Assembly: GCA_002633005.1 (NCBI GenBank)
Contig: NMRA01000180.1
Coordinates: forward strand, 1-34,739
Direction of reading: 5' to 3'
Source: Phoronis australis
Lineage: Eukaryota > Animalia > Phoronida
Length of the DNA stretch: 34,739 nt
Position 1 is the first letter of the stretch, and every line of letters begins with the position of its first letter. This document shows, one piece after another, positions 3,171 through 34,063 of this stretch. Under the pieces are notes generated by a model. It made no database searches, had not been told where the DNA came from, and saw only the letters and a list, made by a program, of their open reading frames with translations. The position numbers and the translations under genes were made by a program.

Positions 3171-3231
3171 AATCATAGCTGTTGTTTTCCTGATGGGAAG
3201 ACCATCGCTGACTTTTGATTTTCAGACGGGA

Positions 3232-4487
3232 GTGACATTCGATGCGTCCTCTCGAGATGATTTTGCTTTTTCAAGCTCATGTTGCGACCATATATGTAGC
3301 TCCTTTTGGCTACTAGAAGCTTGTAAACGTTTGCAGGTGTTTTCTTATAGATTAGACAATGGCGGCCAACGACTTTTCGGGGGTCTCTGTCCACCACCGA
3401 GCCCCTGGTGGCATTGTTGTACCTTTGCCTCTATATCTTCAGACTTTCTTATTTTTTTGTAATTTGTCAAGCAGGTTTCGGTAATGAAAATGACAGCATC
3501 GCTCCAACTTAGGTGGGTTTCGACGTATTTTGCGCCAAAAATGGCTTATCAGCACCACGTCGCAGTCGTTGGCTCATTTCAACTCTCGTAATGCTGCTCT
3601 GGATTACTTTTTGGCGCACAGCATGATCAATTTACGGATGCAATTCCATTCTTTTTCTATTTTCGAATAGGAAAGTTGTGTTATGTCTTCTATGCCTGAG
3701 TAACATACATGTAGTATGCCTGCATAATCTATTACTAACTGTACTTCGGGAGCAAGTTTTCTGTTATACAGAATTTGTTGAATGCACGACACTTTTCATT
3801 GTTCACGGTCTTTATTCCGTTGCGTTCATACTTTCTGAACAAAACTCTACTCTCTACTGAGCATAGATACAGTAACTGACCTAGCGACATAATTAAAAGA
3901 CACACGATATTTCGAAACATACTTGTTTCATTCTCAAGTGAAGATAAAATGACGCAGTAATGCCACCACAGAGTATAAGCTGANGGCGTGACATTCGATG
4001 CGTCCTCTCGAGATGATTTTGCTTTTTCAAGCTCATGTTGCGATCATAAATGTAGCTCCTTTTGCCTACTAGAAGCTTGTAAACGTTTGCAGGCGTTTTC
4101 TTATAGATTAGACAATGGTGGCCAACGACTTTTCGGGGGTCTCTGTCCACCACCGAGCCCCTGGTGGCATTGTTGTACCTTTGCCTCTATATCTTCAGAG
4201 TTTCTTAATTTTTTGTAATTTGTCAAGCAGGTTTCGGTAATGGAAATGACAGCATCGTTCCAACTTAGGTGGGTTTCGACGTATTTTGCGCCAAAAATGG
4301 CTTATCAGCTCTACGTCGCAGTCGTTGGCGCATTTCAACTCTCCTAATGCTGCTCTGGATTACTTTTTGGCGCACAGCATGATCAATTTACGGATGCAAT
4401 TCCATTCTTTTTCTATTTTCGAATAGGAAAGTTGTGTTATATCTTCTATGCCTGAGTAACATAGTATGCTTGCATAATGTATTACTA
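3232..4487. repeat. About 500-bp near-identical direct repeat (3232-3737 and 3988-4487) flanking an N gap
   Basis: Both copies start gtgacattcgatgcgtcctctcgag and end ...attacta, with scattered SNPs and a 6-bp indel. The second copy begins just after the N at 3984. Confidence 0.9.
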
Positions 4488-12900: not shown

Positions 12901-15900
12901 GGTATGGCGAACGACCTGGGTTCAACCCATGACGTTGAACATAATTATTATTTTTTTCAATTTTTGCGTGTTTCTTTATGAGCTGTGCACTATAAGCACT
13001 GAAATCAAGTAAGATATAATAATAAAATTTATTTTTAGGTACATGTTGTGTACACTTTAAACCTTTGCTCTTTAATATTATTGTCAACCTTCACTGTCTT
13101 AATCAAACGTTTTAAGCCTGGAGGGGACAAAATGTGAAATTGTGGACTTGAAATGAGTAAACAACCAGGAGGCACTTTGCAATGAACATGATATCCAAAC
13201 CCAAATTGATATATGAATTGCCATTGGGGGGGAGTAGTTTTTGTAATAAACAGGGGTCCACGCCCCCGTTGTATCCCCCATATCGCTCCCCCGGTGGCTT
13301 CTTCTGGTCCTTAAACCGATGATATTGTTGCGAGATGTTTTTTATTTCAAAATTAGTCAATAATTCCATCAGCCATGCAATTTGATGGCGGATCCATAAT
13401 GTAGCTTTGTACAAGATTTCTGGAAGGACTTCGGAAAGCTACATGTACTTTAAAAGTGTCGCATTCAGGTTCCCAACTGTCTGTATTACGATAGTGTTAT
13501 TCTTGGACTTTACGAGACGCATGATTTTCTATTTAACATATTATTCCTTCTACTAGCTAAGCAGTACAATTACAAGGAGAGATGTCACAAAAATATACCT
13601 AATTTTCACCAGTTCATTACATATACTTATAAGTACTATAATGCTGAAAAATTAATTGCATATAAAAACTTTGTATATGACAGCTTCTCTTCGAAATGGG
13701 AAAATTTAATTGTTCATGTTAACTACATGTAAAAGATATTTACTTTAAACGAGATACGAGAATGGTCTTCCTGAGGTATGCGTGAACGAATGGTGTACTT
13801 ATTTGTTTGTTTGTTTTTGTAATTGCTTTGTAAAAGATAATAAATACCTTAAAAAAAGAATTTATATACTGTTCTTCGTTGGTACATTATTCAGTTGACG
13901 GAGGCTGGAGCGCTTGGTCAGATTGGCCTTCATGTACAGTGCACTGCGGCGGAGGTACGCAAACACGTGTGCGCACCTGTACAAATCCTCGACCTGCTTA
14001 CGACGGCTCAACATGTCCTGGGTCTGACAAAGAATCACGTGACTGTAACACTCATAACTGTAGTGGTAAATATTCACTTTCATTACATGTTTTGATGATT
14101 TGAGATTTTAGTAATCTTAAAATGTTGTCTCCTTGAAACCTTTATGTAAGAGTACTGTTCATTTACATTTCATTCAAGCGACGAATGGAAAAATACCATT
14201 TTATAAACGCATTGGAATACTAAGTTAACCTAAAACATCATTTGAATAGTGTGCCATTATACAATGTACATGTAATTATAAAAATTATTTTAGTTGACGG
14301 TGGGTGGACGGACTGGAGCCATTGGTCAGACTGCTCGACGTCGTGTGGCAACGGTAATGAAAGTTCAAGTAGAACGTGTACCAATCCTGCACCCGCCCAC
14401 GGCGGGCAAGGGTGTCTTGGGAACGAGACGAGAATCAGGAAATGCAAACTGGAGGAATGCCCTGTAAACGGCGGTTGGAGTCATTGGAGTGACTGGGGTC
14501 CGTGCTCGATATCGTGTGGGGAGGGTACACAAACCAGCTCGCGAAACTGCAGCAACCCGTCGCCAACCAACAGCGGGCTTGACTGTGTCGGAAACAGTAC
14601 GAGAACAATTTCTTGCAAACTGAGCGAATGTCCAATAGATGGCGTATGGACGGCTTGGTCTGAGTGGAGTTCGTGTTCTCAGAAGTGCGGAGACGGAATC
14701 CAGAGCAGCTTCAGGAATTGTTCAGATCCAGAACCACAGCATAATGGGCTATATTGTCCAGGAGATAACCAGCGAACCCGGTCATGCATAATCAAAAACT
14801 GTTCAATAGACGGAGGCTGGAACTCGTGGAATCAGTGGGGCACTTGCTCCACGTCTTGTGGAGTGGGTAATCAAACAAGACATCGCAAATGTACCAATCC
14901 TCTTCCAATGTTTGGAGGGCAGGATTGCGTAGGCAATAACTCAACAGTCAGAGAGTGTAATGTTAGAGACTGTCCAATAAATGGGTCTTGGAGTGTCTGG
15001 GCTCCATGGACCGACTGTTCGACAACATGTGGCGGCGGAGTGCAAAATCGGACGAGAGCGTGTACAAACCCAACACCAAAATTTGGTGGGTGGAACTGCA
15101 GCGGTAATAATTCAGAAATACGAATTTGTGGTTTAATAAACTGCCCCGTTAACGGTGGTTGGGGACCGTGGATCGAATGGGGTCCCTGTTCCTCTTCTTG
15201 TAGTCAGGGCCTACAAACTAGGGGGAGATTCTGTGACAGCCCAGAACCATCGTTTGGAGGCAACAACTGTTCCGGTAACTATACTGCAGTGCGTTCGTGC
15301 ATAGTGAAACATTGTCCTGTTGACGGAGAATGGGCATCTTGGAGTAACTGGGGTGAATGCTCTAAAAGTTGCGGCGCAGGTATGCAATACAGATTCAGAG
15401 CATGCGTCAACCCTGCGCCACAATACGGGGGACGAAACTGTTCTGGGAACGATGCCATGACACAACAATGTTTCATAAAGTACTGTCCAGTCGATGGAGG
15501 GTGGACGCCGTGGAGTGGGTGGGGTACGTGTTCTAGTACCTGCAGCGTAGGGGTGCAGGTCAGCAACAGAACATGTACGAACCCGGCGCCAATGTATGGA
15601 GGACAAAATTGTTCTGGTAACAATACGATGTCTCAGGTGTGTATTTTGAAAGACTGTCCCGTTGACGGAAAGTGGTCAGCTTGGAATAACTGGGGGGAAT
15701 GTTCCAAAACTTGCGGCTCAGGTGATCGTGTGAGGAATAGATCATGTGACACTCCTGCACCGGAATATGGTGGAAGAAATTGTTCTGGTAACACTACGAT
15801 GACGCAGTCGTGCTTCGTAAAACATTGCCCTGTCGACGGAGTTTGGGGAGACTGGAATGAATGGGGCGCATGCTCAAGAACCTGTGGTGAAGGGATTCAG

Positions 15901-18900
15901 GTCCGCAATAGAATATGCAACAACCCGGTACCAACGTATGGTGGGCGCAATTGTTCCGGCAACAATACTTTGACACGGTCGTGCCTCATAGAACGCTGCT
16001 CAGTCGATGGAGGTTGGGGGGGTTGGAGTGAGTGGAGTGCGTGCTCAACAACTTGTGGCGCTGGTGTTCAAGTCAGCGATAGAACATGCAACAACCCCGC
16101 TCCGGCTTATGGTGGACGTAATTGTTCCGGGAATGACAATGCTACAAAATTTTGCAATGTTATTGAGTGCCCCGTTGACGGCGGCTGGACATCTTGGAAC
16201 GGTTGGAGTTCATGTTCACTCTCATGCGGGACGGGAATGCAATATAATGCAAGAATGTGTTCCAATCCTGTCCCGGCTCACGGGGGAAATAATTGCACAG
16301 GAAACGACACAGTCACACGGGAATGCCATCTCACTCACTGCGCAGTCGATGGTGGATGGACCTCTTGGACGGGTTGGTCGTCGTGCTCTGTGACCTGCGG
16401 AAACGGTGGACAGCATCGTAGCAGAACGTGCACAAATCCTGAACCTGCTTATGGCGGCGCAAACTGTAGTGGGAATAATACTGCAACCCAACCATGTTTT
16501 CATCAACATTGCCCAGGTTTGCTTTCTATGAAGTAAATTACACTGTTTCATACGACTGAATTACTGGTTTTATAGAATCATGCGGTTTACTTAAATTTTG
16601 ATTCCATGACGTCGTAAACGAATTCCTAATTTTTTTTGCTGTTTTGAAAACAGGTTTGATTCTTGTTAATCCATTTTAACTGTAACGTACAGAAATGTTC
16701 ATTGATGTCGTGTATGATTTCAACAATAATTTCAAGTATTTGTGAACGTTCTTTTAGTGAATGGAGGTTGGAACACGTGGACTGGGTGGGGAACGTGCAA
16801 TGCTACCTGTGGCGGTGGTGTTCAGGTTAGGAACCGCACTTGCAATAAACCGGAACCACAGCACAATGGATCTGATTGTGCTGGCGATGGTTCCGGAAGT
16901 CGCAGATGTAATCTTCATAATTGCCCAGGTACACTTTTGCTTCCTATCAGTCTAAACAAATCGCATTTTTTCTGAACTTTTGTAACTATTTTATTAGTAC
17001 ATCACGTGCTGTGCAATTCAACAAAATGTTCATGTCTGCGTTTTTGCAGTGAAATATTGCAGGTTTTCGCAATTTATTCGCGATTCACATTTCAGTTGAT
17101 GGGGGTTGGAATACTTGGGGGTCATGGTTCGACTGCACCGTTACTTGTGGAGGAGGTTATCAGTTACGTAATAGGACATGCACAAACCCTATACCCGCCC
17201 ATAACGGGGAAGATTGCAAGGGTCCAAAAGTTGGTTATCGGGATTGCAACACTAACAATTGTCCAGGTAAGATGTATGCACGTGGACCATCTTTACACTG
17301 ATTGGGTCAAACGCTACGTTCTTATTTAAAGAAACCAAATTATTTGATGTAACTGACCAAATCAAACGTACCATAAATAGAACTTCGGTATTCCATATGT
17401 TAAGTAGCAAATATGGTTTCTAATAAATGTATTACGCTCGTTCTTCTTAGAACCTGTTCGATCGTTTCCACTGTCGTCAACCAATAAGAAAAATCCAGTA
17501 ACAGTGCATTCGCAATTTTCATCTTTGTATCATAGTGGGTTAAAACTAAACATAACGGTAAACAATATGGCCGTGTTAATTGTATTTATAGTCAACGGAG
17601 GTTGGAACCAATGGAGCGACTGGTCGCACTGCTCAACTTCTTGTGGGGGAGGTTATCAGACGACGTCGCGGAACTGCACAGACCCAGCACCTGCGTTTGG
17701 GGGAGGTTTTTGCTCAGGAGAAGACACTCGGAATCAAACCTGCAACTCACATCGATGTCCAGGTAATTTGTAGTAAGATAATGTATTTGAAGCCCACTGA
17801 GCCCATTGTAATTTAGAATGCTCGCAAGGGAAATTACCTAGTTAGATAAGGTACTCTCTTAGAATGCAAGCTGATTTATTTGTCGAGAAGACTTGCATGA
17901 CTTGTAAATTTACAAACCGCTAAGTTTATGGAACGATGCAGTTGTTGTATTCCCTTATTGAAAAGACGATATCAAATCAAGCGCGAAACCAAAGCCAGTG
18001 GAATGTACAAGCCGACACTGCAGCTTTGGATTAAGCGAAGGTTTAGACAACCAGCAAAGCCACCATTGTTGTTATCAGGGATCACTAATACTGTAGCTGA
18101 CGAATTAGTCCCATCCCATGTCCGCGTGCACGCTAAATCCTTGGACAGTCCAGTCAAGTAGCTGACGGATTAGTTCCATTTCAAACCCGCGTGCACGCTA
18201 AATCCATAGACTGTGTAGTCAACTTTAAATTCCATGTGCTTTAAAACAGCCATAAAACCTGTTTGCAACTTATTTAGAAATGAATGCCCTACCTCCACAT
18301 GGTTGGCTTTATTGTGCCTCGCGGAAAACTAAGATGTCGCAAGCCCGTCGCATAGATGTCGGTATATAGGCGTATCCAAGTTACATTTTTCATCACCAGT
18401 GGCGGATGTAAGGGGGGAGGGAGGGGGCCATGCCACCCCAAAAAAAAATTCTCCCAAACTCCATTTGGCAGTTCGGTGGTCCGAATGTCTAACATACAAA
18501 ATCCTGGCTAATACTCTGCCCTGGCCCCAAAATCCTAAATCCGCCCCTGATCACTTTAGCTTTTCAATTTTATTTGTTGTCTTTACATGTTCATGTCTAC
18601 CGTACATATATACGTGTACTTCGATTCTTTGCCGACCCTACTCATACAGTATATGCAGTATAACGTCGTATAGAAAGTAGAGAATATGTATAGAATGAGA
18701 TTGATCTATTGTAGGACTCGCCCGGTTCTCATGAAAAAATCTGAGGTTGCGTAAAATGAAAATGAAACATTTTAGAAAACTGTAACTTACGTTTATGAGA
18801 TCTCATACTGAACACATAAAAATAAAAAATGGACATGTTATCGATACCGTTGTTTTGCTTTCAATGTACCTTTCCTATTTGCTAAATACTACCAAATAGA

Positions 18901-21900: not shown

Positions 21901-24821
21901 AGTGTTGGCTTTTTTTTCTTCTACCCGATCTATCCGATACTTTCATACATGTAGGTTGTCATGGTCTTTTGTTACTGATTGGTAATTCTACTTTTACCAA
22001 AAATAGATTCTAATTGTATAAGACTTTGGAAAGTAGACGGTGAAACTACTAAGAGAGTACTTACACTTTTATAAGACATAGGTCGGGCAGGTACTAGCGC
22101 CAACTGAAGCTAGTTGGAACTCTGGCTGCGAAATAAAAATGAAATGTTTACCTATCTCTCGTCTCCAAATTCAGTAGGGTTATCAAAATCTGCCCTTAAC
22201 CGTTCATCACTCAATCATCTTTAACCTGACCAACTTTCTGATACCACCTCTGTCATTACGAATCTTCTCCGTCATTCCTGACATTTCCCAACAATTTTGT
22301 CAGGTACCCGCATTTCATCTGTTTTGGGTGTTTAATATCCCACACCTCTCCGGGCTGCGTGGATTTCGGTATCACCGAACCTAATACTGAAAAGCTTGCA
22401 GAGCAAATAGTTCTGATTTTAACCCAGAAGCTGTCTGAGCTTTGTATGTCTACCGATAGCACATACCGACCTGCGTACTTATTATCCTGTAGATGGTTGG
22501 GGCGAGTGGAGCGCGTGGTCACCGTGTTCTGAGAGCTGCAATGGAGGGTACAGGATACGACAGAAAGAATGTCACTCGCAGTGTGAAGGGGTTGGCAATG
22601 AGACGGAAACCTGTAACACTCAGGGATGCCCAGGTAACCCCCTTACATCGCGTGTGAATTAACAATGAATTTCCATTCTACTTATCCACTTGATATGGTA
22701 TCATGCAGCAGGTCATTTAAATTGGAGTGTGTTTAAATTGCAATAACATGAGCAACAGTACGTCGTACAAAAATAAAATGTCAGGTTTGATTTCTTTAAT
22801 TTCACGAAGGATTATACTGAAATTCAGTGTGTTTTGCTTGATTTTTTGTTTGAAGTCAACGGCCAATGGGGCAAATGGTCGGGCTGGTCAAAATGTAGCC
22901 AGACATGTGGAAAGGGTGAGCAGCAAAGACTGCGTCGCTGTGACGATCCTTCAACATCTTCCGGTGGAACGGATTGCAAAGGAGGCAATATTGAAAAGCA
23001 GGAATGTATAATCGAAAAGCTGTGCGAGAAGAAAGCGATTGCAGGCGATTTTGACAAATCACAGGCATCTGCGCAGGATAAGACAGTAATGATGATTGCC
23101 CTATCATCAACTGCTGGAGTAGTGTTTGTGGCGATAATTGTCATAGCAGCGTGTATTGTTTTTGCAAGGTGAGTGCAACGCTACTTACATGTACATGTGC
23201 ATCGAAATTTTTGCCACACGAAGAGATATTTTATGGCTCATCAAGAACGCCACCCACAAGCACACAAGTACGCGGTTCAAACAAAACCTTTTTCACACGC
23301 AAAGACTTTTTTCCAAGCGCCAGTTTAAATACAAAGTCATCGTGGTACGTAGCAAAGGTGTTTGCATATAGTTTTAGTTCAACTTTCGTTGTTAGGGTTC
23401 TTTCCACTCTTGCTAATCAAAATATGAATTTTCATTCAATTCGTCATTTGCAACGTTAACGATTTGTCGTAAGAACTATGTTATTGAAGACGAGGTTAAA
23501 CAATAGGAGCTGGACTGCTATTCAAAGACGCCTTTGGCAATAACAGATTCATGCACGAGCATGAATACCCTGAGAAGAATATCGACAAGGACACGACAAG
23601 TGTACCCTCCCACACGAGAACGGTATTTCAAAGAATATCACCAATGTTTTCATCAGTCATGAAGCGCGTACTTACCACCACATCACCGCTCTTCACACAA
23701 GAACAAAACACCTGGCACAAAAATGAGGTGTGATCTACAAGATAGAATGCCCAGAATGTCCGGCTACTTGAATTAAGGAACAGCTTGAAAGAAAGCAACA
23801 ACTTTTCAAAAATGTATCGACATGTCGGTAGTTGTTGTCTTTAGTCAAACTTTACTAGCGTTCGTCAGTGCAAGATGTTTCGGTAAGGAACACACGTGCA
23901 AAAATGTTACTAGTCTTCCCACAATGGAAGACCATAGTGATTCGACTCTCACAGTGTTACACCTGATAATGTGACTGTAATTGCATCAATTACACCAAGT
24001 ACAGTTTGACAGTACTTTGGAATGTTGTTTTTCTGGTGTCTTACTTCTGACGTGGATCCCACAGTTATATAGTTTCCACGTTCCCCTGAAACTCCAACGA
24101 ATTTTGAAAACTGGACATAATGAACTTCACATGCACCTGGCACTGCATACGGTTATTGTTTTCATCTGTCTTCTCACTGGCAGTGTATTGATAATTTTGG
24201 ACTGTTTCAATAATTTACCTGTAGTTCGCGATTCCTTCGTCCATTTGCCGATAGCAGCATGGATGCAGTGCCATTGTTGTCTCTTGGAAGACTAGACAGA
24301 GTTACGGCTTTGCGATCCAGAGCATTTCTTGGTTTTAGGTTCAGTACGACAATGAAGGCGACTACTATTTTGACCGTCATAAGTATTGGCTGCATTTGGC
24401 AGTAAGGATGTTTTAGTTCTGGCGTATACGCATGTATGTTCATGGTCTCATGCTGTATTTCAGGAGGAATTCAAGGAAACGGAAGAACGCTTTACGCGCG
24501 AGAAGCGAATTTGAGGACTATGCGTCACACAATCCCACCTACGATTCAATGTTTGACAATGCCGGGGCACACAGCGAAGAAAATGTTTACGACTATATTA
24601 ATAACCCAGCGGGGCTCCATGAATCGGACAACATTCGCAATCAACACGTGGTAAACGACTATCACAAGCCACCACTTGGAAAGGTCACCGTAGGAGCGCT
24701 ATTTCAACCAGCCACATTTTCCACTTTCACTGGCAAACGACGGTCTATGTCTGACGAACTTGCTGAGCAAGTGTCTTTAGATTATCATAACCCCACGTAC
24801 GTGTATATGAAGCCTGCATAA
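7612..24821 (+). CDS. PLAT domain + 25 TSP1 repeats + transmembrane helix + NPxY tail, type-I membrane protein (17 exons identified; 5' signal-peptide exon not found)
   Basis: Exons 7612-7771, 9080-9179, 9896-9995, 10682-10852, 13895-14065, 14294-16516, 16758-16928, 17096-17266, 17592-17762, 18939-19109, 19862-20026, 20628-20798, 21316-21486, 21720-21890, 22493-22633, 22856-23168, 24464-24821. All are GT-AG with compatible phases, summing to 5099 nt in one frame to TAA at 24819-24821. Confidence 0.85.
9400..9720 (-). mobile_element. Possible highly decayed non-LTR reverse transcriptase fragment
   Basis: Minus-strand fragments in shifting frames, RHGRGDCELKWH ... GLLNI ... GPQGSHTPLIYPHYFENAL, resemble RT motifs (GFRxGRST, GxPQGxxLSPxLFxxY) in the right order. 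Confidence 0.3.
11123..11951. mobile_element. Foldback / MITE-like element with about 340-bp inverted arms containing a tRNA-like segment
   Basis: 11123-11470 is the imperfect reverse complement of about 11605-11951 (e.g. ttcaaattggagatc / gatctccaatttgaa; caagtcaaagga / tcctttgacttg), with a spacer of about 135 bp. Confidence 0.8.
12310..12577 (+). pseudogene. Acidic N-terminal fragment resembling the Kolobok accessory (KolX / P2X7-ballast-like) protein
   Basis: MAETREFESDDDYEQE... then, after a frameshift, YFEPYELDPP...DPELRADVSE ending in tg|ataaat (probably a mutated W codon and GT donor). An acidic leader, YxFEP and R....W precede the Cys-rich domain in such proteins; that domain is absent here. 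Confidence 0.5.
12600..12864 (-). pseudogene. THAP zinc-finger domain, frameshifted and truncated (transposase N-terminus)
   Basis: MQSTFSVEKVRRGIKRCVSGGCSNSSQAENVSV/(frameshift)PKDTKVAQKWHDLVRRTRVW...LCSAHFEDSCFD carries the C2CH THAP signature with the conserved P, W and F. Confidence 0.85.
14294..16516 (+). CDS. 2223-bp exon encoding 13 tandem TSP1 repeats
   Basis: Exactly 13 x 171 bp; ttttag acceptor and ccag|gtttg donor; lies within ORF 14242-16536. Confidence 0.95.
18093..18222. repeat. 65-bp tandem duplication (2 units)
   Basis: gtagctgacg...ccgcgtgcacgctaaatcc...agtcaa starts at 18093 and again at 18158. Confidence 0.85.
18397..18549. mobile_element. 153-bp MITE
   Basis: TIRs cagtggcggat / atccgcccctg; 5-bp TSD ATCAC at 18392-18396 and 18550-18554; G-rich subterminal tract. 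Confidence 0.8.
22856..23168 (+). CDS. Exon with the last TSP1 repeat, stalk and transmembrane helix
   Basis: VNGQWGKWSGWSKCSQTCG... then hydrophobic VMMIALSSTAGVVFVAIIVIAACIVFA; donor ag|gtgagt. Confidence 0.9.
23540..23785 (+). mobile_element. Decayed Penelope-like retroelement fragment (GIY-YIG endonuclease start)
   Basis: From 23727, GVIYKIECPECPAT*IKE matches the Penelope GVVYxIxCxxCxxxYIGET motif with a nonsense change; upstream EYPEKNI resembles the NGYP linker. Confidence 0.6.
24464..24821 (+). CDS. Terminal exon: cytoplasmic tail
   Basis: Basic stop-transfer RRNSRKRK, NPTY twice, ENVYDYI, KRRSMS, then TAA. The phase-2 acceptor tttcag matches the previous donor. Confidence 0.85.
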
Positions 24822-25183: not shown

Positions 25184-25879
25184 AGGTGTCCTCAGCTTCT
25201 GATCGTGCTCAATACACTATATGTAATACCACAAGGTACATGTATGACACTCTCGTCAAGGAATTCCACGGGTGCTTCACTTCAGCCGTCCATATCAAAC
25301 ACAAGACTCAATATACTTACACAAAACAAGGTTTCAACGAACCATTAGCAATTGTTCTCTATTCTAGTGCCATTCACAGTATCCTGTTCCAGTGAGTTCA
25401 CAACAAATTCGTGGTCAAAGCACAAAAATGTTCCCAAAACACATGCATACTTCGCACTTTGACGGTTCGAGGTCAATGACGGTACTGAAATTGCTGGTTT
25501 GTCACGGAAAGTCACAACCTCGATATCTTCGTAACCTCCGTTAAGTAACGGCAATGTCCGTCCATCCGCAACTCATCGGATAATTCCGTACTGATCTCGA
25601 ATTGTCAAGGTGCGAAGTATGCATGGGCTTTTTGGGAACATTTTTGTGCTTTGACCGCGAATTTGTTGCAAACTCACTGAAGAAGGACACTGTGAATGGC
25701 ATTAGAAGAAAGGACAATTGCTATTGGTTTGTTGAAACCCTGTTTTGTGTAAATTTAATGAGTTTTGTGTTTGATATGGACGGCTGAAGTGAAGCACGCG
25801 TTGAATTCCTTGTCGAGAGTGTCATATCTTGTAGTATTATATGTCGTCTATTGGAGACGATCACGAACTGAGGATGCCT
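25184..25879. mobile_element. Foldback / long inverted repeat (about 300-bp arms, about 100-bp loop)
   Basis: 25184-25482 is reverse-complementary to 25584-25879 (e.g. gcttcacttcagccgtccatatcaaacacaa / ttgtgtttgatatggacggctgaagtgaagc). Confidence 0.9.
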
Positions 25880-29823: not shown

Positions 29824-32800
29824 TTAACCAGATCCGCAAACGTATGAACAGTAGTTGTTACTGTTGGTCCCTTCATAGACCCAGCAGGTGGCGCGGTTGT
29901 CCGTGTAGCGCCCAATATGAATGTGTTCTCCGCCAGTACAAGTCCTGGAACCGTGCCAGATGACCTGTAACGAAGAATGCAAATGCTAAATTTATTTATA
30001 CAAGGGTGGAGTCCCAACTATAGACATTTAGATAGGGTCCTGTAGACGTAAGAAACTCTTGGTTAGCGAACGGAAACAACGAATTCTGGGTATAGGCCTA
30101 ATCATGGGCGGCGCACCATAGGGGCCTGGGGGGGCTATAGCTCACCATATTTTTCACAGCTACGTCGCCCATGTTCTGTGGGAGATGCACCACTTTTTTC
30201 AGTCTGCACCGCCCATGATAATGGAATACCTCAACGACCAAGCACTTAAGTGACCTATGTTTTGCTGGATTACCCTAGCCCTGAATAATTCCGAAACACT
30301 CGCTTTTCATCTGTGTGATTTACATGTAGCGTGGTCTTGCATGATCTCACTTCTCACGCACAAAACATGGTCTACGGAATGCACTTCAGATATGCATGCA
30401 TCAGTAAACGTTATTCGTTTACATTCGCTCAGGCAAGAGCCAGTTGCAGAATATATTTTGCGACAGTTAGGCCACAAGTGTATTGAATAGCGGCCAATGC
30501 ATTTTTATCTGCGACAGTTTGCATGAAACACCCAGTTAGGAACTCAACTCTATTCCCAAATATTTAAAAAGTTTGCGTCCTTGTTTCGCTGCATTATCAT
30601 TATGAGTTCCTGTTTGGCTGGTTACAGTTTCTGTTCTGAAAACTCAGCCCTTAATTTCAATTAATCATAAAAAGCTTATCTAATGCTTAAGAAGACCCTG
30701 CACATGTTCAATACTTAGTGCGAGTTTATAGCTAAAATTGACTTAGAAATGGAAATGGTACAGCAATAGAACGGATTGCCAGTGGCTTGCACAAATAAGT
30801 GTACAACTGCGGTGAAAACGTATTTGAGTACCTATTTAGGACTGTTTCGCGTAACCGCTTACTGTTTCCCATAATATGGCTCTTAACTCACATCCGATTG
30901 GCCAGATCTCTCACCTGGTAGTAACGAGCGAGAATACCGCTTGATTTGATCTTCTGAAATATAGCAGCCCCAGAGCTTTGTCCGTCAATCCAGAAGTCAG
31001 CCGCCCTTCCGACATCGTGCTATGGACAGATAGGTGTGGCAATAGCGTGTCAAAGATATACATGTATGAAAAACTGAGTGCAGTGTATCAAATTCGTTTA
31101 TCCTATCAAAAAGTAAAATACAATGTAGATCAGTTACCGTTATAAAACTAGGTTAACTCTGAATAGAATACGGAAACTGTCAGATATTTATTGCTTGAGG
31201 CATCTTGTTCCGACGAATCCTGTTTTGCGCCCAGTATGGTCTCAGGAAATAACAAGCACCCGCCTTTCAACGGTGTGATGAAGATCGCCCTCATGTGACC
31301 AGAGTGGCGACGCAAATGTCTAAGACGTGGCAACAGAAGTTTCTGGTGTAGACACTAATGCACACCCCGGAGTTAATCGCTTGTAGTAAAAATAATCATG
31401 GGTCCGTGAACGTAAATTCTACGGGACAGCAAATGGCACCATTACCAACAACTATTTTATTGCCCCAGAAAAGCGTTACAGGTTCCACCAGGTACTCATA
31501 CATTGATACATGTATAAGGTCAAAAACCAATGTTTCCTCGAGGCCTGATAAAACACCGATCACTTCGCCACAATATCAACACGCAACTTCACGTGGAAGT
31601 TTATAATTTCCTTTCAGGAACACATCTCTGATGCATAATCAATCATAGCTCGCGTGTCAAAACCTTCATTTATTTCATTTCACAGGCGAAAGAGACGTAC
31701 TGTAACTGTGAATAAAGTTCAATTTCAAGGCATTCACAGCCTTCTGGTCCAAAATTAGCAAGTCAAAGTTTTATATGCTATGACGGTGCAGTAATTGTAA
31801 TAAGTCAATTAGATGCTGCGTAAGAATTGGCATTGATAATGTATCTGGCTGAGCCCAGGGGCATGGATAACGTAAACTCACGTGAGATCTCCCGTTACCA
31901 TTCCTGTCGCCACTGGTTACCCATAACCGGGTGCAGAACAAGTCAGCTATGCGTTGTAGGTCTTGCTTAACTTTGCTGTCGGAGATACGGTAACCACGGT
32001 AGTCTACTCTGCCGCAACCCGATTTTCCTAGAAGGAAAAGTATTGTGCTGAAGCATTATGTTCTTATTTCCAATACTCGATCACATGTTCGTACATGTAC
32101 ATTCCCTATAGAAAGGAAAATTAATTCACTAGAAAATTTTCGAATTTTTGCGCCGAAGCTCCAAAAAAGATTTCACGTTTGCACCATACTTTTGAACTGT
32201 ACACCGTGAATAAAAACTAAGAGAGAGAATACAAGGACAAAAATGTCACAGGCATTATGTTTGTAATACAGATAACAAACCGACTGAGCCACCGGAAGAA
32301 CACTGAGCGGACGATCCGACTTTCAGGTACTTGCCGACTGTCCAGACGCTCTGCAAAAGACAATTAGTTGCAAGGGAATAATATGACTTAAAAGTGTCAA
32401 CAATAAAATGTACAAAAGGATGTACTTTCAGTGAACATTGTTCACACCTGAGCGGATTAGATTGTGTAAATACAGTTTTCGTTGTTGTTGTTGTCGTTAC
32501 CTTAGTCCCGTATGTCAACTTGAACCACTGGTATCCGTCCTTGGTAAGTCTGAGCCCAGCGTATTTGTAACATTCACCCCTGTTGAGCGTTGCTACTACA
32601 CTTGCCCTGATGCTGGCTGAAATGTGTTTTGACAATAATGTCAGATTTTATTTCGTCGTCAATTGAAGTTAATTAGAGAGCATATTAGAAAATGTGATCA
32701 TTATCCGTAGATCATTGCAACATAATTTCATCCCACGGTAAAAGTTTTAACACATCAAGTAGAAAACTTGAACTTGTAGAGTTTAATGCCGAAATCTGCT

Positions 32801-33983
32801 CACTGACTAATCTGTCGCCTATTGGATCAAGTTTTAAATTTCAGTAAAAATATTTTGGAAAGTAATATCCTAGCAAGCACCAGCGTGATTTAACATTATA
32901 AATATTTACAATGCAGAACAAAATCCCAAGAACGATGTCAAAATTTCTAAATTTTATTTCCTTTTTCGAGGTATAAATAGGAACTTTTCAAAACTAAGAT
33001 TCTGTGCTAGAGCGACTTGTTTTAAAACAACTCACGATAATGTACATGTAGCTTCAATAATAGTGTTTGCACAACCATATATGGTATCAGACGATTGTTT
33101 TTGAGCCCGGTCAGCTATTTCTTATATCCGTTGTTCCGAATAAAACGGGGAAAGTTTTGACATGTTTTGTTTTTTTCATAGCCTTAAAAGGAGAATATTA
33201 TTTCATAAGTTTGCATTGTACTATGTTCAAGATCAACGCAAGTTACACACTTTGAGTTTCCAAATCAGTGATTGATTGTGGTTTACATTTCTTTATGTGA
33301 ATATTAATATTTTCTATAGAGGCCTCTAGATGCTCTCATTTTTTCACAATTCTGTTTTACCGACTTTTTGTCCACATTTTCATGAGACGTCATGTAAAGC
33401 CCGGAACATCTCATCCGTAACACTTCGTGTGTCATCTTTTCGTACCCTCAAAATCTCAGAGGCAAATTTCAACAGCAAGTCATGTGATCCTTAAATTTGA
33501 GGCAACGGAAATATCAATGCATGTATGTACATGTAATATACCTTAATTACGAAATGCTTTGCATGTACAAAGTTTTGAAGAAGACGACAATAGTAATTAA
33601 TTAGAATGTGGTAAGCGTGAAGTTTGCATGCTAAATTTACACGATATACCTGTAAAAGGTGACTTAAACTACATGTACTTCAGTTCGCAGAAGCATCTCT
33701 AATTCCTTTGTGGTTGTGAGTTTTTAGGAGGACACCCAAGAAGTGATCAATTTTAAGTGACTTAGACTTAAGAACGACGTGGTTCAATTGCCCCAATTAC
33801 TGATTTTGTCTTCAGTATGATTATAGAGCAACGATAATGTATAATTGTTTTTCAAATACCTGAGCTTCTGGCATTGACGCCAGTTCCCGTTAAACACAAA
33901 CAGGTTCCAAATTTCGGGTTGGTTCCGGTTATATCAGCCTCTGTTACAGCGAACAAACCGGCGAAGACGATGTACAATAGCAT
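29824..33983 (-). CDS. Secreted SH3b-like domain + peptidase M15 (Zn D-Ala-D-Ala peptidase fold) protein, 233 aa, 6 exons
   Basis: Exons (-): 33983-33860, 32616-32501, 32350-32281, 32027-31882, 31019-30915, 29964-29824; all GT-AG, 702 nt in frame. MLLYIVFAGLFAVTEA-DITGTNPKFGTCLCLTGTGVNARSSASIRASVVATLNRGECYKYAGLRLTKDGYQWFKLTYGTKSVWTVGKYLKVGSSAQCSSGGSVGKSGCGRVDYRGYRISDSKVKQDLQRIADLFCTRLWVTSGDRNGNGRSHHDVGRAADFWIDGQSSGAAIFQKIKSSGILARYYQVIWHGSRTCTGGEHIHIGRYTDNRATCWVYEGTNSNNYCSYVCGSG*. Confidence 0.88.
30103..30217. mobile_element. 115-bp MITE in an intron of the M15 gene
   Basis: TIRs catgggcggcgca / tgcaccgcccatg; imperfect 5-bp flanks ctaat / ataat; G-rich subterminal tract. Confidence 0.65.
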
Positions 33984-34056
33984 TTTGCTTAATGAGGCCT
34001 CAATACTTGATAATCACTCCAAAGCACTCTGATATTATTTTAAGGCCGATCGCTGA

Positions 34057-34063
34057 TTTTATA
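34057..34063 (-). promoter_or_regulatory. Candidate TATA box of the SH3b-M15 gene
   Basis: TATAAAA on the minus strand about 75 nt upstream of the ATG, with an Inr-like ATCAGA about 30 nt downstream of it. Confidence 0.5.

Follow-up and report, generated by a model that had tools for sequence, protein, structure and literature searches.

The analysed stretch of DNA comprises 34,739 nucleotides of contig NMRA01000180.1 from Phoronis australis (in the following, the window). Between positions 33983 and 29824, its minus strand carries a gene of six coding exons for a likely secreted protein, in which an SH3b module precedes a domain of the M15 zinc-peptidase type. The gene belongs to a family of lophotrochozoan animals, whose catalytic domain is probably of bacterial source and which is predicted to act on the bacterial cell wall.

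Gene structure and expression

The six exons join to 702 nt, corresponding to 233 amino acids and a stop codon, and all five introns are of the GT..AG type (1243, 150, 253, 862 and 950 bp; phases 1, 0, 1, 0 and 0). The phase-1 intron after exon 3 divides the targeting module from the catalytic domain. The gene comprises the following features:

34058..34063, minus strand: TATA-like hexamer with a putative function, lying some 45 bp upstream of the read ends
33984..34017, minus strand: 5' untranslated leader, with many read ends at 34016-34017
33983-33860, minus strand: coding part of exon 1 with start codon, predicted signal peptide (amino acids 1-16) and start of the cysteine-stapled SH3b module (gene model, RNA reads)
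32616-32501, minus strand: exon 2, SH3b core (gene model, RNA reads, SH3b profile)
32350-32281, minus strand: exon 3, end of SH3b and Gly/Ser linker (gene model, RNA reads)
32027-31882, minus strand: exon 4, start of the M15-type domain, with TSGDR and R145 (31905-31903)
31019-30915, minus strand: exon 5, predicted zinc ligands H153 (31019-31017) and D160 (30998-30996)
30102..30145, no strand assigned: short dispersed repeat in intron 5, to which all four RNA runs contribute reads of either strand that stem from other loci
29964-29824, minus strand: coding part of exon 6 with H191 (29955-29953), H201-x-H203 (29925-29917), C196, C214, C226 and stop codon
29771..29823, minus strand: 3' untranslated stretch, covered by the X1 contig and reads

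All five junctions were supported by reads in the runs X2 (58-134 reads each) and X3 (81-109 each), among them the junction of exons 1 and 2 (32616/33860) with 120 and 108 reads, and one 713-nt contig of X1 spans all five in spliced form. The first mates lay on the plus strand, as would be expected of a minus-strand transcript in most types of stranded library. The model of six minus-strand exons and 233 amino acids, with its motifs, had been proposed in an earlier note made from the DNA letters and was borne out by these reads. The gene is a genuine, spliced and expressed animal gene; it is integrated, intron-bearing and expressed, as would be expected of a domesticated gene. No paralog was found within the window.

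The expression was uneven between the samples. From the 18-19% of each run that was read, X2, X3 and X4 yielded 480, 472 and 2 junction reads, corresponding to 37.6, 41.7 and 0.18 per million records read and thus to an approximately 200-fold higher number in X2 and X3 than in X4. The repeat in intron 5 showed a similar read depth in X2 to X4, despite X4 being near-silent for the gene.

At least 13 differences between the reads and the coding sequence of the window were listed, of which eight are synonymous and five alter four codons. The amino-acid differences among those listed all lie in exon 5, and none of them concerns a predicted catalytic residue or ligand. At codon 185 (window 30922-30923), the window encodes Tyr, some of the X2 and X3 reads encode Gly, and the X1 contig encodes Asp, which is also the residue of most homologs.

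Domains and active site

The protein comprises a hydrophobic N-terminus followed by TEA, the hallmarks of SH3b, a Gly/Ser linker, TSGDR (R145), H153-x6-D160 and H201-x-H203. It contains ten cysteines, and the mature protein is cationic with an isoelectric point of about 9.5. The signal peptide call, made from hydrophobicity and the -3/-1 pattern only, points to a protein that is likely secreted.

A Pfam scan of the window protein exon by exon gave a family match for none of the six pieces. Since single exons remain without a match, the family assignment rests on homologs and purpose-built profiles. The catalytic-domain profile, built without the window protein, scored this protein with 181 bits, while the 58 bits obtained with the SH3b profile are not independent, as this profile was seeded from the window protein.

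R145, H153, D160, H191, H201 and H203 were invariant in 10 of 10 animal rows and in all 45 rows of a bacterial Peptidase_M15_3 subfamily, and H153, D160 and H203 also in all 28 generic M15_3 rows, although the invariance of H153 and D160 is partly by construction, the rows having been cut out on the HxxxxAxD motif. R145 was present in all 83 aligned rows and H201-x-H203 in 55 of 55 subfamily rows. In the 28 generic rows, position 191 is mostly Gly and position 201 mostly Phe or Trp, and His is absent among the four commonest letters at either position. H191 and H201, invariant in the 55 animal and bacterial rows, are two extra histidines that the animal domains share with the bacterial subfamily. 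E200 gives an ExxH-like pattern, as in VanX-type enzymes. As E200 is present in just 6 of 10 animal and 1 of 45 bacterial rows, the base is more likely to be H201.

The spacing of the Arg, His, Asp and HxH positions follows R294/H301/D308/H373/H375 of VldE, for which the accessible parts of PMC11667670 report that Ala at H301, D308, H373 or H375 abolishes the muralytic activity and that R294 presumably steadies the transition state. As judged from the alignment, the predicted Arg/His/Asp/His site of the window protein is intact. All 10 animal rows contain C196, C214 and C226, while 41 of the 45 bacterial domains are cysteine-free; the cysteines added in animals would fit an adaptation to secretion.

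Relatives in animals

A search with exon 4 matched a protein of the annelid Owenia fusiformis, which is 60% identical to the window protein over the whole length. Via this protein, further homologs were found in the chiton Liolophura sinensis, in Lingula anatina (three proteins titled 'lysozyme 1') and in one protein of the Joint Genome Institute (JGI), as well as two more divergent Lingula proteins. The locus L024 showed the same domain layout with 48.5% identity and all five introns at matching positions and phases, in a gene model read from DNA alone whose third donor has three in-frame options. Altogether, the family forms one animal clade of annelid, chiton and brachiopod members with conserved introns.

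All eukaryotic matches with an organism name, among the matches listed, were lophotrochozoan. This range is a lower bound, as the deep search covered the best 150 of 2666 matches, mostly SH3 repeats, and another search scored proteins of at least 245 amino acids only, among 7990 candidates. The catalytic domain of the animal members is preceded by one or two SH3b modules, by Cys-rich repeats, by a PAN domain or by a leader only; two Lingula paralogs comprise no wall-binding module (PAN domain or none). The partner modules of the animal members are those found on lysozymes and PGRP amidases.

Structure models

The anatomy of SH3b and M15-type zinc peptidase, as claimed in the earlier note, is supported by the Owenia homolog. 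Its N-terminal domain matched Pfam SH3_3 (SH3b, PF08239) with 37.9 bits at a cut-off of 27, and the model of this domain matched SH3b domains of endolysins and wall peptidases with Z scores of 9.6 (root mean square deviation (rmsd) 2.0, 68 aligned residues) and 9.4. The SH3b domain of the window protein is 47% identical to it. For the catalytic domain of Owenia, a model from an 18-row alignment reached a predicted local distance difference test score of 95.4. Among 48,161 chains, its best match was the Streptomyces zinc DD-peptidase 1LBU (Z 8.2, rmsd 3.1, 102 aligned), followed by Hedgehog (Z 7.6-7.1), VldE (Z 7.0) and the phage T5 peptidase cleaving L-Ala-D-Glu (Z 5.7). These Z scores are of moderate height, and the first five differ by no more than about one unit; even so, each of the six leading rows is a member of the same superfamily (LAS). 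The structure neighbours of the domain in the ESM Atlas were YcbK/MepK and M15 endolysins. According to the models, SH3b and M15A-type folds are present in the Owenia homolog. Searches of the PDB by sequence gave only two chance regulator matches with the whole-protein alignment and insignificant rows only, mostly Hedgehog (best E 0.34), with the domain alignment.

Relatives in bacteria and phages

The catalytic domain is 33-50% identical to the bacterial M15_3 subfamily, compared to 16-28% for generic M15_3 rows. The named carriers are Blastocatellia and other Acidobacteriota, Chondromyces crocatus, one Bacteroidota genome and two genomes labelled Clostridia. The proteins of L001, L003 and L006 ('uncultured Clostridia') are nearly identical to those of Blastocatellia from the same class-level search, and these labels may be wrong. 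The subfamily is rare: it was found in 10 of 251 genomes of the richest class, and a survey of one phylum with the domain profile matched 4 of 301 genomes, strongly in the seed genome only.

Among the 36 bacterial relatives scanned, 22 carry LysM, PG_binding_1, SLT, glucosaminidase or Hydrolase_2 domains over the Pfam cut-off, and four more relatives are titled muramidase by JGI. By this association, the proposal of peptidoglycan as the likely substrate gained support. No gene context common to the bacterial carriers was observed except one type VI secretion locus (1 of 13 loci with neighbours scanned). In this Bacteroidota locus (L012:520-7467), a stand-alone subfamily member lies between VgrG-like and TssN genes and is a candidate for a wall-targeting antibacterial effector.

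The kinship to phage enzymes suggested in the earlier note turned out to be distant. Phage records gave ten weak matches to a bacterial query, with 30-43% identity over part or most of the domain, and the phage relatives found by structure showed 15-24% identity. Of 24 pattern matches in viral contigs only one passed, a 12-residue piece that was not used; the plasmid search gave SH3 matches only and PHROGs weak endolysin and amidase rows only. Since the results from viral contigs, phage records and PHROGs were distant or weak, a known phage donor is not supported. Feature searches of the ESM Atlas pointed to viral clusters (0.94) and fungal VldE-type clusters (0.84), which serve as leads only.

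Phylogeny of the catalytic domain

Two trees were calculated, one with 83 rows and 125 columns (LG+G4) and one with 79 rows and 128 columns (LG+C20). Three partial proteins, one motif-less row and 40 near-duplicates (at least 90% identity) were left out beforehand, and four long outgroup rows additionally for the C20 tree. The animals and the bacterial subfamily were separated from generic M15_3 with a support of 98/98 and 100/100, a grouping that supports the proposed bacterial source of the catalytic domain. The animals formed one clade (94/89 and 99/89), which was sister to three LysM/PG-binding proteins (90/67 and 94/87); in the C20 tree, they were enclosed by a mixed clade that comprised 18 rows and had a support of 96/96. 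In both analyses the best tree nests the animals within the bacterial subfamily. The identity within the groups amounted to a minimum of 29% and a median of 44% for the bacterial rows and to 33% and 54% for the animal rows. The closest relatives outside the animal clade are bacterial, with up to 50% identity.

Origin of the SH3b module and the fusion

Contrary to the assumption that SH3b combined with M15 is a bacterial layout, no SH3b match was found in bacterial carriers among 123 excised M15-domain sequences, whereas five animal-type carriers comprise SH3b. In an unrooted tree of 79 columns, which include the cysteine columns, 12 animal-type SH3b domains with four to six cysteines each were split from 50 bacterial-type ones at 98/97. 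The same animal module heads a PGRP amidase of Owenia (P0087). Both gene models, of the window gene and of L024, show a phase-1 intron in the linker. From these patterns, the fusion of SH3b and M15 most likely arose in animals by domain shuffling.

The four-cysteine SH3b module was also observed on other animal-type proteins (P0143 of Dreissena, P0064, P0023, P0025 and P0087), which include the PGRP amidase, a tandem SH3b protein and the Dreissena protein. In the C-terminal domain of P0143, H..A.D aligns to the profile and HxH is present, but with a probability of 2% it was excluded from the family. For P0136, the presence of SH3b was not borne out.

Proposed function and alternative explanations

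Altogether, we assume with a probability of roughly 70% that the gene encodes a secreted zinc peptidase which was captured once from bacteria early in lophotrochozoan history and is predicted to cut the peptide cross-links of the wall. The mature cationic protein would be exported and dock on peptidoglycan stems by its four-cysteine SH3b module. The zinc ion would be held by H153, D160 and H203, with R145 steadying the transition state and H201, perhaps together with H191, activating water for the hydrolysis of a stem or cross-link bond containing D-amino acids. An endopeptidase cut, as made by MepK or VldE, seems more likely than the trimming of dipeptides. In this way, bacteria living in the gut or on surfaces covered by mucus would be weakened or broken down, which would serve either defence or nutrition. 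Regarding its history, the catalytic domain would originate from the bacterial M15_3 subfamily, would then have gained cysteines and introns, and would have been joined in animals to separately acquired targeting modules.

The idea of a domesticated capture holds in that the gene is intron-bearing and expressed. It does not hold as a lone capture, since the introns are conserved in a clade spanning annelid, chiton and brachiopod; the probable capture is old and inherited within lophotrochozoans rather than recent. A wider version, for which we see an even chance, would be a modular anti-wall kit of lophotrochozoans, in which the zinc cross-link peptidase, taken from the rare bacterial M15 subfamily, and a separately captured, disulfide-stapled SH3b were domesticated before the split of annelids, molluscs and brachiopods and then shuffled onto several catalytic and binding partners.

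A number of points weigh against the proposed wall peptidase of bacterial source. The fold results concern the Owenia homolog and not the window protein, and the Z score of 8.2 lies near the level that the tool calls common for unrelated models, with Hedgehog (Z 7.6) within one unit; Hedgehog is also a precedent for the repurposing of the fold in animals. With Pfam Peptidase_M15_3 (PF08291, cut-off 23.2 bits), the animal homologs reached 12.8-21.8 bits or gave no match, and the cut-off was passed by 10 of 11 bacterial sister proteins in one scan. No bacterial member of the subfamily with a tested function was found. The trees use only 125-128 columns, leave out Hedgehog sequences and contain three animal rows of atypical composition, and the nearest bacterial rows (P0059, P0092 and P0181) are metagenome proteins. 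Finally, bacterial monophyly with the animals as sister was not rejected by approximately unbiased (AU) tests (p 0.43 and 0.27). On the phylogenetic check proposed in the earlier note, both best trees place the animals among bacteria, but the alternative stands. A bacterial source of the catalytic domain, which we consider probable, is therefore the simplest reading, without a strict nesting or a particular donor following from the trees.

Among the other explanations, it is conceivable but unlikely that the protein binds or trims peptidoglycan fragments without lysis, as a scavenger or sensor which tunes immune signalling or symbiont tolerance in the manner of catalytic PGRPs. Such a role would agree with 1LBU, the closest solved structure, being a DD-carboxypeptidase and with the fusion of the same SH3b module to the PGRP amidase P0087; moreover, a secreted enzyme may not cross the outer membrane, as described for tick Dae2 in the accessible part of PMC7962413. 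Nonetheless, both the wall-targeting SH3b module and the fusion of the bacterial relatives to LysM, PG_binding_1, SLT, glucosaminidase and Hydrolase_2 point to the polymeric wall.

We give little credence to a Hedgehog-like repurposing for a host role (matrix, mucus, signalling or host peptides with D-amino acids) with no action on bacterial walls. Although Hedgehog chains are the next-best structure matches (Z 7.1-7.6) and two Lingula paralogs comprise no wall-binding module, TSGDR stands in place of the acidic Hedgehog motif EGWDED in the alignment, and the similarity in sequence does not reach significance (E 0.34). The identity of up to 50% to bacterial wall enzymes and the modules of wall-enzyme type kept by most animal members also speak against it.

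Very unlikely, too, is an origin other than by transfer from bacteria to animals, i.e. an ancient eukaryotic family that most lineages have lost or a transfer from animals to bacteria. The result of the AU tests, the rarity of the subfamily in bacteria (1 of 301 genomes strong, 10 of 251 in the richest class) and the thin sampling of eukaryotes would leave room for it. However, both best trees nest the animals among bacteria, the bacterial members are at least as diverse and mostly cysteine-free, the outgroup is bacterial and phage, and the named eukaryotic matches, among those listed, are all lophotrochozoan. An artefact of the gene model or a bacterial contamination, which the single exons without Pfam match might suggest, is refuted by the five spliced junctions in RNA, and the animal neighbours with thrombospondin repeats and the conserved introns in another genome leave it practically no weight.

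Surroundings of the gene

The remaining window consists of animal DNA with thrombospondin-repeat exons. Positions 1-25000 (plus strand) are taken up by thrombospondin type-1 repeats, organised as one large gene or as two, and the hydrophobic stretch at its end (about 23100-23170) resembles a transmembrane helix. Two very long repeat exons at 950-2749 and 14224-16536 showed about 91% DNA identity, which points to an internal duplication. An open frame at 24417-24821 (plus strand) with Tyr motifs (NPTY, YDYI) and no Pfam match is possibly the cytoplasmic tail of a thrombospondin-repeat membrane protein. A direct duplicate of about 500 bp with 95% identity (3229-3737 and 3985-4487) lies beside an N at 3984 and may be an assembly overlap. 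An inverted repeat of about 295 bp with 85% identity (25189-25482 and 25586-25874) resembles a miniature inverted-repeat transposable element or a foldback element.

Comparison with known systems

Compared to peptidase M15A / Peptidase_M15_3 (1LBU; MepK/YcbK of E. coli), the family is alike in the fold, the upstream Arg, H-x6-D and the distal His. 1LBU is treated as a LAS peptidase in the accessible part of PMC4102407. With 16-28% identity to generic M15_3, the family belongs to a distinct subfamily with SGDR and the invariant H191 and H201; cysteines, introns and a likely signal peptide are additional features of the animal members. VldE/MT3, an L,D-endopeptidase of Streptococcus pneumoniae (PMC11667670, accessible parts), shares the LAS fold (Z 7.0), the spacing of Arg, His, Asp and HxH and the order of wall-binding module, linker and catalytic domain. 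It differs by a LysM module in place of SH3b, by a structural identity of 24% and by H370, three residues before HxH, which has no counterpart at that place in the window protein.

No paper on this M15 family or on the SH3b fusion was found in a literature search that left subscription journals mostly uncovered; tables of genome papers could list members. In the same literature, no report of an animal secreted zinc endopeptidase for peptidoglycan was found. The view that the fold is known in animals mainly from Hedgehog needs correction, since the accessible text of PMC7379824 already names M15 domains of fungi and Trichoplax as transfer candidates. Its supplementary table (2020) contains M15_4 proteins of Ciona and Branchiostoma, and it labels the Lingula proteins A0A1S3ITZ8, A0A1S3IU05 and A0A1S3KGF4 as Hedgehog/DD-peptidase superfamily; these are P0004-P0006 of the present family. 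In its main text, as far as accessible, Lingula, Hedgehog or SH3 are not mentioned. The M15 proteins with Cys-rich repeats of Trichoplax, Ciona and Branchiostoma were not among our named matches and are known here from PMC7379824 only.

Tick Dae2 and the phage-type lysozymes of bivalves (PMC7962413 and PMC7379824, accessible parts) are bacterial wall-degrading enzymes kept by animals after transfer. In contrast to these, the window protein is predicted to be a zinc peptidase of the LAS/M15 type, with a targeting module apparently added in animals. Dae2 is a cysteine-type amidase and the phage-type lysozymes are glycosidases; among the animal enzymes known to act against bacterial walls, lysozymes and PGRP amidases predominate, next to a few captured enzymes of the cysteine type. 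The family represents a variant on a theme already familiar from other domesticated bacterial wall enzymes; one supplementary table foreshadows it in part, and it is otherwise undescribed as far as searched. If true, the retention of a secreted zinc M15 peptidase in three animal phyla would add a chemistry to invertebrate defence or feeding on bacteria. The finding also brings to light a bacterial subfamily that had gone uncharacterised, together with an SH3b module of animals. As the protein is small and its predicted active-site residues are clear, the claim is cheap to test.

The Hedgehog N-terminal domain, BacHh and Hedgling share the fold and the zinc ligands with the window family. The structural identity to Hedgehog is about 22% (profile E 0.34, the best obtained), TSGDR aligns with EGWDED, and the window family keeps the Arg and comprises neither the acidic motif nor the intein domain. 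According to the accessible part of PMC8052667, a calcium centre is a feature of Hedgehog and BacHh; there and in PMC6027127 (accessible part), a bacterial source is proposed for Hedgehog. The window family is a lineage separate from Hedgehog and lies close to other bacterial proteins. If the proposed reading is true, it would give animals a second lineage of the Hedgehog/DD-peptidase fold, one that has so far departed little from the bacterial form. It would then lend itself to comparison in the debate on whether Hedgehog itself is a peptidase that came from bacteria.

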